DNA of 56,858 nucleotides from a virus (taxonomy: Duplodnaviria; Caudoviricetes), in the IMG/VR virus record IMGVR_UViG_3300047548_000085, positions 1 through 56,858 of that record. One strand, written 5' to 3'. Position 1 is the stretch's first letter; every line of letters begins with the position of its first letter. Positions 29,314-37,734 of this stretch are shown one piece after another. The notes beneath the pieces are model-generated. The model was not told where the DNA came from, ran no database searches, and worked only from the letters and a program-made list of their open reading frames with translations. The position numbers and the translations under genes are program-made.

Positions 29314-29327
29314 TATTTATTATTTAG
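29314..29327 (-). promoter_or_regulatory. tandem late promoters (CTAAATA, ATAAATA) right after the radical SAM cluster
   Basis: Minus strand CTAAATAATAAATAA upstream of the fibre gene at 29284. Confidence 0.65.
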
Positions 29328-29875
29328 GAGACTACTAACCCGTGTAGGGAGTCTAAAACTGTATCGTAGTCTTCATTCCAGGAGTATTGGAGGAAAACTC
29401 TAGTTTTATCATCCTTTTTGGTAACGCTATGAAGTTCGTTAATATTAAGCAGATATGCTTCTCCAGCCTTAGCCGACAATGAACACTCTATGTTTAAATC
29501 CTCAAAGTCGTATACATGGTAATCTTCTCTAACTATCCCGTCTTTTGGAGTGTAAAAAATGGTTTCGTCTTCAGATGTGTCAATGTAGTAGTTTAAAGAT
29601 ACCTTAGATTCGCCTCGATCACGATGAACGTCTAGCCACCCCTGTTTTTCAATCTGCCAAATTTGAATGGTGGTTGGAGGAATCTTAAAATTGTAATTTT
29701 GAATGTTGGCATAAAACCCTTCCATATCAGCGATTTCGAAAAATCTAAGCAAGGTATCACCCTTTAGTGGATCAGTATCTACACCAAATGTAAAGATGTT
29801 ATCTCCCCTGTAGTCTAAAATTTTACTAGGGTTTTTAACGAAACATGGTTTTATCTTACTGAAGTATTTGTTCAA
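29324..29875 (-). CDS. 2OG-Fe(II) dioxygenase / cupin-fold oxygenase
   Basis: HxD (VHRD) ... H (LHSV) ... R (TRVFLQ) facial-triad pattern; SLNYYI and AYLLN strands. Confidence 0.7.
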   Translation of the reverse strand: MNKYFSKIKPCFVKNPSKILDYRGDNIFTFGVDTDPLKGDTLLRFFEIADMEGFYANIQNYNFKIPPTTIQIWQIEKQGWLDVHRDRGESKVSLNYYIDTSEDETIFYTPKDGIVREDYHVYDFEDLNIECSLSAKAGEAYLLNINELHSVTKKDDKTRVFLQYSWNEDYDTVLDSLHGLVVS

Positions 29876-31157
29876 TTCCAGACTCCATCAACTCAACCTG
29901 TTCGCCGAATAGTAAAGATAACGAGTTTTGTTGAATAGCCGAATACCAAATCTTTTCGACTCTGCAATTGTGTAAGAAAACTTCGTTAGGGAAGTCGATA
30001 GGACAGCTAGACTTACACAATCTTTTAACGGGGCAGTGATAGCAGTGAGTGTTCTTTCTTTCAAGAGCCATTCCTACAATCTTAACACCCTTCAAATTAT
30101 TTATGTGACCACCTGTAAATTTTTCATTTGTATGTGGACATAATCTTACGCTACCACGGATGTCTAACGATAGAATATCCGCTGAATCTGCACCACATGA
30201 GGAAGTCATCGTTATAGGAATCTGATGACGAGTCAATGCAGCGTATTTAAGAATACCTGTGTCGTTATCTACAATGTTAGACTTTAGGAAACGATCTCCA
30301 CCTTCTTTCTTTTGGCGAATGCATGCTTTAAGATAAGCGTCTACATTTTCCTTAAACTTGGGTAGGAGGTCACCAGTGATAACGTGCTCAGCTGAGTTTT
30401 CCTCTCCACGTTCATCGTACACTCTCGCTGGAATGAATGACAACCTAGCGTCTTTCAATCCTAGACGATCTGCAACTTCTTTAAAGTAATCGTTGATTTC
30501 AAACAGATCGTAGTTAGTGGCTGAAACAACAGAGTTGAAACTAAACTGAACTTTTGGAGCGAGTTCGGCTAGTTGTTTGATAGATGACACTACGCTTTCT
30601 TTATTGAAGATGTCTTCGCCACGAAGTCGTTCATGTCCTGGACCATCGTGTGAAATACCCATCATCACAGATGCCTGTAAAGTCTTAAAGAAGTCTACAT
30701 GCTTTTGACGTAGTGGTGAGCCATTAGTTGAGATGTAGAAGTGACGACCTGGAGCATCAAGAAACTTCATAATTGGAACCATATCATTCCAGTAAAGGAA
30801 TGGCTCGCCACCCCACAACTCAATGCGTTCTAGTTGTTCTAAATCTAAGTGAGTTTTAACTGACTCAATGAATGACTCTAACCAGAAGTTCTCTGGTCGT
30901 TCGTTTGGGTTACCGATGTCTTTTTGCATACAGTAACCACATGAGTAGTTACAAGCATGACCCAGTAGGATGCGTAAAGCGACTGGTTTATTGTTCTTAT
31001 GAGTTACACCGAAAAGACCCTTGTCTTCGAAATACTCCCAACCTTCTTTTGGTGGAAGTGATAGCATCTCACCTTGCTCGCTGTGGATGCTATTATCAGT
31101 GTTGTCGTAGTAGAAAATACGACCAGAATCTTTTAGTTTAAATTTTGAAAAACTCAT
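29856..31157 (-). CDS. radical SAM / SPASM-domain protein
   Basis: CNYSCGYC, WGGEP, STNG, ISHDG; SPASM-like C..G.V.LC ... CxxCx5Cx3C ... C. Confidence 0.92.
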   Translation of the reverse strand: MSFSKFKLKDSGRIFYYDNTDNSIHSEQGEMLSLPPKEGWEYFEDKGLFGVTHKNNKPVALRILLGHACNYSCGYCMQKDIGNPNERPENFWLESFIESVKTHLDLEQLERIELWGGEPFLYWNDMVPIMKFLDAPGRHFYISTNGSPLRQKHVDFFKTLQASVMMGISHDGPGHERLRGEDIFNKESVVSSIKQLAELAPKVQFSFNSVVSATNYDLFEINDYFKEVADRLGLKDARLSFIPARVYDERGEENSAEHVITGDLLPKFKENVDAYLKACIRQKKEGGDRFLKSNIVDNDTGILKYAALTRHQIPITMTSSCGADSADILSLDIRGSVRLCPHTNEKFTGGHINNLKGVKIVGMALERKNTHCYHCPVKRLCKSSCPIDFPNEVFLHNCRVEKIWYSAIQQNSLSLLFGEQVELMESGIEQILQ

Positions 31158-32224
31158 AATTTCGTCACAAAACTTTTGATGGGTGTTCCGTCTAACTTAA
31201 CGAACCCATGTTTAGTTTTTGTCCATCCTCTTTGTTGTAATTTATCACAGTAGCGACTATAAGGAACCATCATCATTGAAGGTATAAAATTATAGTCATC
31301 GTTAAAGGTGTAGTTCAAAGTCTTTGTAAAGTATTCTTTAAACTTAGGATTGGTAGTCCTATCTTTCCACTTGTCATACAAAATTTGTTTACCACGAGCC
31401 AATGAAATTAAGAACTTTTCTGGCTCGAACTCTCTATTTAGAATGTAGTAGGGTTCGATGCTAGGATCGGATGCAACGTCATTGGAGAAGTAAAACCTAT
31501 CAAAGAATAGACAGATGGCTTCATCTCCATAGACCTGCATATTACCTTCGGTATCTACGTCAATCCATGTCACCTGCTGGTCAACCCAGTCTTCAGTTAG
31601 CAACTCTCGCTCACCAGCCAAGAAGTTGTAGTGAAACATCGTCTCAATGTTTTCTTTCTTAGCCCACTCATAATATTCACGCAAGGCATTGATGTTACCA
31701 CAGTCGATTAACTTCAACTGTAGGATAGGCGAAACCTCATGAATCTCTTGTAGCGATCTTTTTAACTTATCACCATTTACCTTTTCAACAAAGTAAGAAC
31801 TAAGGGAAATACTAGCGATCTCTTTGAAGTTGAGTTCCTTCGCCATACCTCTGTAACGGAAAATCTGATTGTCGGTCATTCCGTACTGAAAACGCTTTCC
31901 GTTACGCTTGAAGTAATCGTAGTGCTTTGGGTAGTTCAACTTTAAGAACATCATATCATCGTCTGTTCTTAGATACCCAAAGTAATCAAATACAGTTTCC
32001 CACTTTTCTTCAAGAGCATCATCAAAGTCGAAGTAATAATTACTAAGACCCTTCTTCATGTTCTTGAGGTTTTCTTGAATGTAGCAAACATGGCACCCAG
32101 CATCGCAAAAATAACGAGTGCTGATGCTAAAGTAAAGATCTCGCTTAACTGACTTGATACAATCCTGTAGGAGCCAGTGTTCGTCTAGATCCTTTGCTTC
32201 TTCAAAATGAGTCAAATAGTTCAT
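31154..32224 (-). CDS. divergent radical SAM-like protein
   Basis: CDAGCHVC (CxxxCxxC) near the N-terminus, but no GGEP motif and no SPASM Cys cluster. Confidence 0.65.
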   Translation of the reverse strand: MNYLTHFEEAKDLDEHWLLQDCIKSVKRDLYFSISTRYFCDAGCHVCYIQENLKNMKKGLSNYYFDFDDALEEKWETVFDYFGYLRTDDDMMFLKLNYPKHYDYFKRNGKRFQYGMTDNQIFRYRGMAKELNFKEIASISLSSYFVEKVNGDKLKRSLQEIHEVSPILQLKLIDCGNINALREYYEWAKKENIETMFHYNFLAGERELLTEDWVDQQVTWIDVDTEGNMQVYGDEAICLFFDRFYFSNDVASDPSIEPYYILNREFEPEKFLISLARGKQILYDKWKDRTTNPKFKEYFTKTLNYTFNDDYNFIPSMMMVPYSRYCDKLQQRGWTKTKHGFVKLDGTPIKSFVTKL

Positions 32225-36952: not shown

Positions 36953-36971
36953 AATATATCACAATAAACCT

Positions 36972-37358
36972 TTATGATGTTCTATCGTCAACTGTGTGGT
37001 AGTGACTTCTAATTTGATTGATCGCATCTCTCAATTCATTGTGGCGAGATGCAGAAATTGCTGTGTTGGCTGTTGTATTAGTTGGTGCAGAAGTTGCAGC
37101 GTCTGGACCAGAAGTATTTACGTCACGATAGTAGTTGTTTCTATCGCCATTATTACCATATGTAGCCAACTGATAGGCATCGTCATATGTATGATAATGC
37201 CCATTCATATTATTGATAAGAGTAGCAATGCTATTTAAGTCGCTGGCACGTACTGTGTTTCCTGCCTGAATCGCATTTCTAAGTGTTGCTATTTCAGTAG
37301 CGATAGAACCACTACCAGTAAAAACTAATGCCTTTGCGCCACGCTCTGCGGTTGCCAT
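36972..37358 (-). CDS. 128-aa protein with two helix-HxH-DD repeats (putative fibre-tip structural protein)
   Basis: VRASDLNSIATLINNMNGHYHTYDD and ISASRHNELRDAINQIRSHYHTVDD; structural-protein-like composition. Confidence 0.75.
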   Translation of the reverse strand: MATAERGAKALVFTGSGSIATEIATLRNAIQAGNTVRASDLNSIATLINNMNGHYHTYDDAYQLATYGNNGDRNNYYRDVNTSGPDAATSAPTNTTANTAISASRHNELRDAINQIRSHYHTVDDRTS

Positions 37359-37359
37359 G

Positions 37360-37734
37360 TTACACTCCTAGTACTTCGTTTGCCCAATCCGTGTCCCAAG
37401 AATCGCCAACTGCAACATAAACCTTTTCAGAATCAATATTTTTACTAATAAGATATTTAACAGTATCTGTGACTAAAGAAACTGCTTCACCTTCTTCCAA
37501 TAACTCTTTAATGTGACTAACTGCTTCTGGGTTAAAATCAAGTTTTAAGAATGACTCATAGACTTTATCCCAATCTGGATTTATTACTGCAAAACCACCA
37601 GGAATATCTGCAACTGCACTTTCTTTAACTGCAATGATAGTTTGTTCAACTGGCTCGTCAGAGTATTCAAAATTGAATAGTCCACTACCCTTAACAAACT
37701 CATAAAAGAAATGAAGGTGTTGCTCTGGAGTCAT
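37360..37734 (-). CDS. acidic hypothetical protein
   Basis: Start moved to ATG 37734 (TAATG overlap with the fibre gene); no motif recognised. Confidence 0.65.
   Translation of the reverse strand: MTPEQHLHFFYEFVKGSGLFNFEYSDEPVEQTIIAVKESAVADIPGGFAVINPDWDKVYESFLKLDFNPEAVSHIKELLEEGEAVSLVTDTVKYLISKNIDSEKVYVAVGDSWDTDWANEVLGV

Follow-up and report, generated by a model that had tools for sequence, protein, structure and literature searches.

Why should a bacteriophage carry four genes for radical S-adenosylmethionine (radical-SAM) enzymes between its tail-fibre genes? The question is raised by a block of ten genes, here called g1 to g10, in a 56,858-nucleotide stretch of viral DNA (Duplodnaviria; Caudoviricetes; IMG/VR record IMGVR_UViG_3300047548_000085, positions 1 to 56,858; hereafter the window). 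A preliminary description, made from the letters of this DNA, had taken the block for a virion-maturation pathway that installs an elaborately modified peptide on the phage particle. Here, we report that the block holds a module of seven core genes, found almost exclusively on phage contigs, and we propose, at a probability of roughly 0.45, that the product of this phage-specific module is a complex of small proteins, cross-linked after translation and destined for the tail fibre. Our best reading of the product is therefore a cross-linked complex serving the fibre, not a secreted antibiotic. The window itself belongs to an uncultured aquatic T4-like myovirus, an assignment made because its baseplate wedge protein shares ~41% identity with its counterparts in Pelagibacter phage HTVC008M and the Methylophilales Melnitz phages.

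A seven-gene core recurs in several phage lineages

Loci were gathered, from the matches listed, by scans with an alignment of the peptide encoded by g5. The scans gave at least 38 loci in IMG/VR and at least 47 in metagenomes; after removal of duplicates at least 65 distinct loci remained, and the 33 that extend at least 2.5 kb upstream and at least 7 kb downstream served as the counting set. These 33 loci span several phage lineages, including the Ralstonia jumbo phage RP12, which was found along with the Ralstonia jumbo phage RP31 through a tblastn search with g6 (47% identity). Among 185,579 GTDB species genomes only one contig matched, a 25.6-kb contig (L009) of a metagenome-assembled genome labelled Bdellovibrio sp. 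28-41-41; it may be a binned phage contig, and the neighbouring gene examined on it had no PHROG match. No match came from a megablast search of 50,697 phage records with the region as query.

Presence was called by tblastn for g6 to g9 (for g8 also with a hidden Markov model, HMM), by iterated HMMs for g2 and g4, and by HMM for g1 and g10. The radical-SAM genes g6 and g7 were present in all 33 loci, as were g2 and g4, and g8 and g9 were present in 32. On the strength of these counts, we define the core as g2, g4, the peptide gene g5 and g6 to g9. The window and 32 of the 33 loci share the order g6-g7-g8-g9, and the peptide gene always adjoins g4, either after or before it. Only one locus, L030, departs from the pattern for g8 and g9: it encodes a 758-aa fusion of g7 to g6 (13056-15332, minus strand) with two CX3CX2C motifs, and its available part contains neither g8 nor g9. 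In two further loci (L043 and L080) a paralogue resembling g6 lies between g8 and g9 and brings the radical-SAM genes to five.

The other genes proved to be accessories. Over the same 33 loci, a DUF3050 gene was found in 19, g1 in 10, g3 in 5, two kinds of small cupin-like gene in 2 and 1, and g10 in none. This distribution revises the preliminary description in two respects, as the ferritin-like diiron gene (g3) and the oxygenase-like gene (g10), which it had counted as core tailoring enzymes, are accessories, and the HxH-repeat protein (g2) and the 302-aa protein (g4), which it had left as bystanders, are core.

Gene order in the RP12 record is the same. Its peptide homologue is a 65-aa open reading frame (ORF; L001:10793-10990, plus strand) between ORF074 and ORF075 that is unannotated in RefSeq, and ORF078, the homologue of g8, is annotated as hypothetical only. 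We found no paper in the literature that describes the module; in the available portion of the RP12/RP31 paper, a study that also has a list of 32 RP31 virion proteins, the module enzymes are named only among 'other genes' (PMC5468394).

The g5 peptide combines a leader with a cysteine ladder

At the centre of the module lies g5 (35047-35250, on the minus strand like the whole block), which encodes the 67-aa precursor or small protein that the preliminary description had pointed out; both the reading frame and its C-terminus are as described there. The product consists of a leader helix, an HxHxFYDDY motif, a ladder of five cysteines (CxCxCxCxC) and an xRGxx end. Because 63 distinct full-length sequences recur with these motifs, the reading frame is more than a chance ORF. 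In an alignment of 42 sequences, H42, H44, D48, C56, C58, C60, C62, R64 and G65 are invariant. The number of ladder cysteines is five in 58 of the 63 peptides, four in 3 and six in 2, and every one of the 251 positions between ladder cysteines is N, Q, A, E or D. The xRGxx end or a close variant closes 62 of the 63 peptides, and the remaining one is truncated. From the first histidine through the arginine, conserved residues fall at every second position, so that this segment may present them along one face of an extended strand.

Longer natural forms of the peptide also occur. In the protein P0111, the ladder is followed by a proline linker and then by a domain of ~180 aa. Two other homologues, of 207 and 206 aa (L030:9953-10576, plus strand, and P0109), share an insert of ~135 aa at the same site, after the fourth ladder cysteine. 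This insert opens on a Cys and closes on an Asn that precedes a Cys, in the manner of a mini-intein, and its excision would restore the register of alternating cysteines; it is an intein candidate by its junction residues alone, the Pfam Intein_splicing profile reaching only E 0.05 and an AlphaFold2 (AF2) model of the L030 peptide having a predicted local distance difference test score (pLDDT) of 38.7.

The g5 leader is related to g2 and predicted to dock onto it

The core gene g2 (36972-37358) encodes a 128-aa protein built of two copies of a helix-HxHxxxD unit. The two HxH motifs noticed in the preliminary description are well conserved: all 36 sequences compared have H54, H56, H119 and H121, and D60 as well. 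The window protein has no Pfam match. When an HMM built from 49 distinct g2 proteins was searched against 6,611 ORFs, it recovered the peptides at E values of 2e-7 to 4e-5 (best 25 listed), and among the matches listed no ORF outside the g2 and g5 families scored below 1e-3. The alignments place the first ~50 residues of the peptides onto either g2 repeat, and by these profile matches the g5 leader is homologous to the g2 repeats.

Structure prediction points in the same direction. The predicted complex of g2 and g5 scored 0.83, against 0.02 for the best control; the mark applied to this score is reached by 58 of 80 solved complexes and by 2 of 110 mismatched pairs. Separate runs share at least 87% of contacts, with a partner pLDDT of at least 69. 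In the model, residues 2-48 of g5 contact residues 5-58 and 100-125 of g2, which comprise both helices and both HxH regions, and the cysteine ladder lies outside the interface. Thus, g2 is the predicted docking partner of g5. A natural fusion of the two exists in P0110, a metagenomic protein of 230 aa. Neither P0110 nor P0111 could be placed on an IMG/VR contig, and both, like the other longer forms, are unnamed in the protein collection. HxH metal sites occur in gp37 and gp12 of the T-even phages and in the spike tips of P2 and phi92; by analogy with the T4 gp37 and P2 gpV tips, the three HxH units of a g2-g5 pair may form a histidine-lined metal site.

These results bear on the idea that the module yields a diffusible ribosomally synthesised peptide with post-translational modifications (RiPP), that is, that lysis frees the modified g5 core, trimmed of its leader by a host protease, to serve as a signal, an antibiotic or a metal-binding peptide. 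A leader followed by a cysteine-rich core beside SPASM-domain maturases is what such a pathway would have, the FYDDY block together with the conserved xRGxx end has the look of a well-delimited core, and lysis could stand in for an exporter. However, searches of Pfam, PHROG and NCBIfam matched none of the ten products to a protease or transporter family, and no immunity gene was seen in the module, in line with what the preliminary description had observed. The leader, moreover, is homologous to g2, its predicted binding partner; the peptide occurs fused to g2 and with C-terminal extensions; in several lineages structural operons enclose the module; and the GTDB species genomes contribute a single contig. 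We give a diffusible product a low probability. Because of the g2-g5 homology, the modelled binding, the natural fusion and the lack of a protease, we regard the leader as a retained docking element and not as a disposable RiPP leader.

g2 homologues carry varied domains, and g4 is a predicted all-beta core protein

A search of 1.84 billion representatives assigns 282 clusters to the g2 family at E<=1e-3. Among the best 150 homologues, 20 are at least 175 aa long, with extra domains between the two units or after them. One of these, P0253, from another phage, matches the Pfam 'phage tail fibre adhesin' family GP38 (PF05268) at 1e-7 (32.5 bits against a cut-off of 25); the same profile does not match g2 of the window. 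Other homologues carry Lactonase beta-propeller, Hint or Gly_rich_2 domains. Since the added domains vary in this way (adhesin, beta-propeller, Hint, Gly_rich_2 and the extension of P0111), g2 is best regarded as a conserved anchor that displays variable binding modules. Four g2 homologues (L038:8614-9972, plus strand; P0221; P0227; P0262) end in a beta domain followed by Hint, and P0262 matches Hom_end_hint at 2.6e-9, above the Pfam cut-off; such ends suggest that the anchor protein cleaves itself, or undergoes ligation, at its terminus.

The core gene g4 (35259-36167) encodes 302 aa and, called an unknown in the preliminary description, matches no family in Pfam, PHROG or NCBIfam. Its AF2 model (pLDDT 85) is an all-beta, multi-domain structure of several sandwiches. 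The best viral structural match, and the only good one, is RP12 ORF075, at a template-modelling (TM) score of 0.77. Some loci hold two or three g4 paralogues; no longer fused form was found among 6,770 candidates, which is weak evidence.

Four radical-SAM enzymes probably cross-link g5

Downstream of the peptide gene lie g6 (33296-35032; 578 aa), g7 (32221-33348; 375 aa), g8 (31154-32224; 356 aa) and g9 (29856-31157; 433 aa). Against a cut-off of 29.5 bits, the Pfam Radical_SAM profile (PF04055) matches g6 at 63.4 bits (3.7e-17), g7 at 48.4 (1.6e-12) and g9 at 44.9 (1.8e-11). The CX3CX2C motif, which binds the SAM-cleaving 4Fe-4S cluster, is kept throughout the homologues, in 51 of 51 for g6, 46 of 46 for g7, 45 of 45 for g8 (C40, C44, C47) and 46 of 46 for g9. 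The divergent g8 has no Pfam or NCBIfam match and hits phrog_36229 at 8.9e-21; as Pfam gives no match, its membership of the radical-SAM superfamily is argued from motif and synteny only. The C-terminal cysteines that characterise SPASM domains, a set of seven for two auxiliary 4Fe-4S clusters, are distributed unevenly. g6 has a full SPASM domain (PF13186, 22.4 bits against a cut-off of 21.5), with seven SPASM cysteines conserved in 50-51 of 51 homologues. In g9, which has no Pfam SPASM match, six C-terminal cysteines are conserved in 45-46 of 46; g7 retains C312, C315, C321 and C338 in 46 of 46, a partial set; g8 has none of this type. The preliminary description had counted four radical-SAM proteins, three of them with SPASM-type cysteines: the four hold, three by Pfam and g8 by its motif, and of the three SPASM-type sets those of g6 and g9 hold, whereas g7 has only four of the cysteines.

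The relatives of these enzymes indicate what they may act on. g6 aligns over both its core and its SPASM domain to peptide maturases; its best NCBIfam families are the PapB (2.1e-35), SCIFF (4.4e-24), CXXX-repeat and QhpD (1.2e-21) maturases, with scores of 122.5 bits against a cut-off of 340 for PapB, 85.2 against 425 for SCIFF and 76.9 against 453 for QhpD. The nearest PDB entry to g6 is 5wgg (1.9e-16), which we take to be CteB. g9 matches 8vpo (4.7e-8) and SkfB (6efn, 6e-5), and the best NCBIfam matches of g7 and g9 are generic (viperin-like, twitch), all below cut-off. The His-Xaa-Ser families HxsB and HxsC match g6 (4.8e-14) and g7 (2e-5), respectively, far below their cut-offs. The proposal of the preliminary description that a peptide and a radical-SAM maturation system belong together is thus well supported, as the peptide is accompanied by g6 and g7 in every one of the 33 loci and by g8 and g9 in 32 of them, and the nearest relatives of g6 are thioether-forming maturases. 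Collectively, the four enzymes probably cross-link g5. Thioethers from ladder cysteines to the interleaved Asx/Glx residues are our first guess, since this is what the nearest relatives of g6 and g9 suggest and since there is a precedent for a SPASM enzyme that installs thioethers on a protein, namely CrpA/CrpC of Methanococcus voltae, reported in 2026 (PMC13692751, as far as its available text describes the system). Possible alternatives are the formation of a cofactor or action on the His/Tyr block.

We also considered whether the small ORF is incidental and the target of the radical-SAM enzymes is DNA, tRNA or a small-molecule cofactor. Phage radical-SAM enzymes do take part in DNA hypermodification, according to the available part of PMC8989533, and the generic, sub-threshold matches of g7 and g9 would leave room for such a role. 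The constant company and strong sequence constraint of the peptide argue against it, as does the alignment of g6 with peptide maturases over core and SPASM domain, and Pfam and NCBIfam searches found no nucleotide-modification genes in the module. We therefore rejected DNA hypermodification for g6 to g9, and consider any scheme not directed at the peptide very improbable.

Accessory iron enzymes vary between loci

The enzymes that accompany the core differ from locus to locus. In the window, g3 (36164-36952; 262 aa) is a ferritin-like diiron protein, as first described: it matches Pfam Rubrerythrin (PF02915) at 29.4 bits (cut-off 22.8), and the diiron ligands E42, E73xxH76, E123 and E153xxH156 are invariant in seven homologues. 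The last gene of the block, g10 (29324-29875; 183 aa), is specific to the window and sits where relatives carry DUF3050. It has no Pfam match at E<=1, and its label as a 2-oxoglutarate (2OG)-Fe(II)-like oxygenase, given earlier, or as a cupin-like protein is unconfirmed; its Atlas neighbours are viral hypothetical clusters (0.97), and the nearest named one, 2OG-FeII_Oxy_3 (0.91, with 148 shared features), is a lead only. Comparison with the small cupin-like genes of sister loci revealed no relation (hhalign probabilities <=0.5). The usual oxidase of the module is DUF3050 (PF11251, heme-oxygenase-like iron enzymes), which follows g9 in relatives (for example, a gene of L006 matching at 3.9e-73) and which a profile search found absent from the window. 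By tblastn and HMM, 14 of the 33 loci have no detected DUF3050, and none of these 14 has g3 or either small cupin-like gene (cupin160, cupin156).

Three sister loci (L002:13950-14432, L003:11176-11664 and L004:13238-13726, all plus strand) have a gene of 160-162 aa between g7 and g8 that shows an HxD...H pattern, no significant Pfam match and no detectable relation to g10. On a 114-kb phage contig (L008:17952-18651, plus strand), genes for an IscU-like protein (NifU_N, 3.6e-53) and an IscA-like protein (Fe-S_biosyn, 1.6e-17) directly follow the module, and proteins of these families would provide Fe-S clusters; downstream, two membrane proteins resemble fatty-acid desaturases by eye only.

Oxidases beside a SPASM enzyme recall built-in protein cofactors, and the Tyr, Asp and Cys residues of g5 could become a cross-linked quinone-type or metal-binding prosthetic group, akin to that in the small subunit of quinohemoprotein amine dehydrogenase, of a redox or metal protein that need not be structural. 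The place of the QhpD family among the best g6 matches fits this idea, as do the frequency of O2-dependent iron enzymes (DUF3050 in 19 and the ferritin-like protein in 5 of the 33 loci), the invariance of the HxH, D, Y and C positions, and the single locus with IscU and IscA genes beside the module. Yet 14 loci do without any of the detected oxidases, no dehydrogenase subunits accompany the module, the QhpD score lies far below its cut-off, and neither the fibre context nor the adhesin fusions would be accounted for. We hold such a cofactor centre to be improbable.

The module lies among tail-fibre genes

The ten genes of the window are real, closely packed minus-strand ORFs (29324-37749, with spacing from a 53-nt overlap to a 19-nt gap), and the ORF list and PHROG matches place them between two tail-fibre genes, as the preliminary description had stated. 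Upstream lies a 418-aa ORF (g0, 37734-38990, minus strand; phrog_19602, 4e-12) that is conserved beside the module in T4-like relatives, and downstream a 238-aa ORF (g11, 28568-29284, minus strand; phrog_11393, 1.4e-8; phrog_24210, 2.7e-8). The first gene of the block, g1 (37360-37749), confined to one lineage, encodes a 129-aa protein that is indeed acidic (24 D+E against 8 K+R) and has no match in Pfam, PHROG or NCBIfam. Further upstream, a PHROG search identified baseplate wedge and hub genes, and between the baseplate and fibre genes lies a gene for a 2159-aa protein (39220-45699, minus strand; phrog_358, of unknown function, score 1687.5), likewise conserved beside the module in T4-like relatives. 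No tRNA genes were found in the window.

The T4 late-promoter consensus has no site in the whole window against 3.09 expected, and a sigma-70 scan gave 27 sites against 34.4 expected and is hence uninformative. No intergenic terminator separates the module genes; terminator-like hairpins number 18 in positions 27500-40000, against 7.4 +/- 3.0 in shuffles, and lie mostly inside coding sequence. Sequencing runs labelled freshwater and wastewater metagenome contain the window DNA, and no RNA run is among those listed for it.

The link with structural genes extends to unrelated phage lineages, and the connection to tail genes drawn earlier holds there; the GP38 fusion of g2 also supports it. Of ten neighbours examined on each side in more distant loci, 7 upstream and 8 downstream match PHROG tail, fibre or virion-structural families, some of them weakly, and ORF072 and ORF073 of RP12, which adjoin its module, are annotated as virion structural proteins. 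This association is the strongest clue to function.

Synteny with fibre genes would fit a fibre-assembly helper equally well, in which the matured g2-g5 complex, with or without g4, stays outside the particle and folds or trimerises the neighbouring fibre proteins as a chaperone or catalyst. Fibre assembly is aided by certain gp38 and gp57A proteins of T-even phages, and gp38 of T4 is itself an assembly factor; the GP38 family match on a g2 homologue can be read in this light, and ORF074 and ORF075 bear no virion label in the RP12 record. On the other hand, the beta-propeller, glycine-rich and adhesin domains grafted onto g2 resemble displayed binding modules and not parts of a chaperone, the two or three g4 paralogues of some loci fit diversification of receptor binding, and it is hard to see why a chaperone should need four radical-SAM enzymes. 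An assembly helper is, in our estimate, unlikely.

A proposed cross-linked complex for the tail fibre

In the reading we prefer, a cross-linked complex destined for the fibre, the module would be transcribed together with the fibre genes. g5 would dock onto g2 through its N-terminal helix and HxH motif, giving a three-unit g2-g5 bundle that we liken to the histidine-lined metal sites of phage fibre and spike tips, and its C-terminal tail, FYDDY-(x)3-CxCxCxCxC-xRGxx, would be left free. On this tail g6 to g9 would act, most likely linking ladder cysteines by thioether bridges to carbon atoms in the Asn, Gln, Asp or Glu residues between them or in residues close by, and the variable O2-dependent iron enzymes (g3 and g10 here, usually DUF3050 elsewhere) would add optional oxidation. 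With the leader uncleaved, the product would remain a g2-g5 complex, which together with the beta-sandwich protein g4 could serve the fibre as its tip, as an anchor or as an accessory to the adhesin. A more specific form of this proposal, in which a thioether-stapled ladder on a two-chain, three-unit, histidine-lined and metal-binding bundle is the tail-fibre anchor on which phages display adhesin domains, is tentative and on the doubtful side. Of the virion-maturation pathway first suggested, the maturation system and the fibre link stand; a protein complex appears likelier than a free peptide installed on the particle.

Several points weigh against this proposal. All four enzymes fall short of the curated NCBIfam cut-offs, which makes the type of reaction a guess. 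The binding of g2 and g5 is a model computed from alignments of our own making with an iron ion included. The fold of g4 is uninformative, since its model has no real match in the PDB (Fab-like structures at TM<=0.19). The fibre link is not universal: non-structural neighbours include a ribonucleotide reductase subunit, matches of unknown function and two genes without matches. In RP12, ORF074 and ORF075, the g2 and g4 homologues, are called 'hypothetical' while their neighbours are called 'virion structural'. Finally, radical-SAM enzymes are oxygen-sensitive and the accessory iron enzymes need oxygen, which the proposal does not reconcile.

To our knowledge, peptide maturation by radical-SAM/SPASM enzymes has been confined to bacterial natural products and a few cellular proteins and has not been met in the construction of virus particles. 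The module may be a new viral way to build a host-recognition part. If so, it would be the first case of radical-SAM chemistry maturing a structural part of the virion and would represent a new, virus-confined class of 'structural RiPPs', and, were the product in the fibre, host recognition by widespread aquatic and soil phages would depend on chemistry that ordinary virion proteomics would miss. The module is compact, with seven genes and a substrate that comes with its own docking partner, and it bears on how four radical-SAM enzymes deal with a cysteine at every second residue. It also supplies an annotation marker for ~280 g2-like clusters and for a peptide gene omitted from phage records such as that of RP12.

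Comparison with known systems

The nearest relatives in chemistry are the ranthipeptide/SCIFF systems (PapB, ScfB and CteB types). They too have a cysteine-rich, leader-bearing precursor beside a SPASM maturase, PapB and SCIFF are the best families of g6 and 5wgg its nearest structure, and the Asx/Glx residues beside the cysteines are as in Cys-to-Asp/Glu thioethers. The module nevertheless misses their curated cut-offs widely and has four collinear radical-SAM genes instead of one, a ladder with Cys at every second residue, a leader homologous to a separate partner and no protease or exporter, and it occurs almost only on phage contigs, in fibre modules. The His-Xaa-Ser system (HxsA, HxsB, HxsC) similarly sets several radical-SAM genes beside a His-repeat peptide and gives the weak HxsB and HxsC matches; it has HxS repeats, in contrast to the HxH motifs and Cys ladder here, is bacterial and not phage-borne, and its scores lie far below the cut-offs. 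A single radical-SAM gene of cyanophage S-SCSM2R, beside AHBA-synthase-family and amidinotransferase genes in the part of its description available, is not this module.

Closer in the fate of the product is QhpC/QhpD, the small subunit of quinohemoprotein amine dehydrogenase and its maturase, in which a small cysteine-rich chain is cross-linked by a SPASM enzyme, stays in its complex and is then oxidised, and whose QhpD family matches g6 at 1.2e-21. The module, unlike it, has no dehydrogenase subunits, dedicated protease or core tryptophan, its oxidases are optional, and its score falls below the cut-off. CrpA/CrpC likewise applies a RiPP-type maturase to a cysteine-rich protein that is not processed to a small peptide, and differs, in the available text, in being archaeal and cellular, with one enzyme, an unrelated substrate and no virion context (PMC13692751).

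On the side of the virion, the long tail fibre tips of T-even phages and the gp38 adhesin offer a parallel in architecture: HxH motifs follow helices in proteins of the fibre locus, one g2 homologue carries GP38, and others are glycine-rich. The three HxH units of the module would, however, come from two different chains and not from a homotrimer, and we know of no radical-SAM enzymes acting on T-even fibres. Set beside these systems, the module emerges as a virus-specific, previously undescribed form of radical-SAM peptide or protein maturation that is tied to tail fibres.

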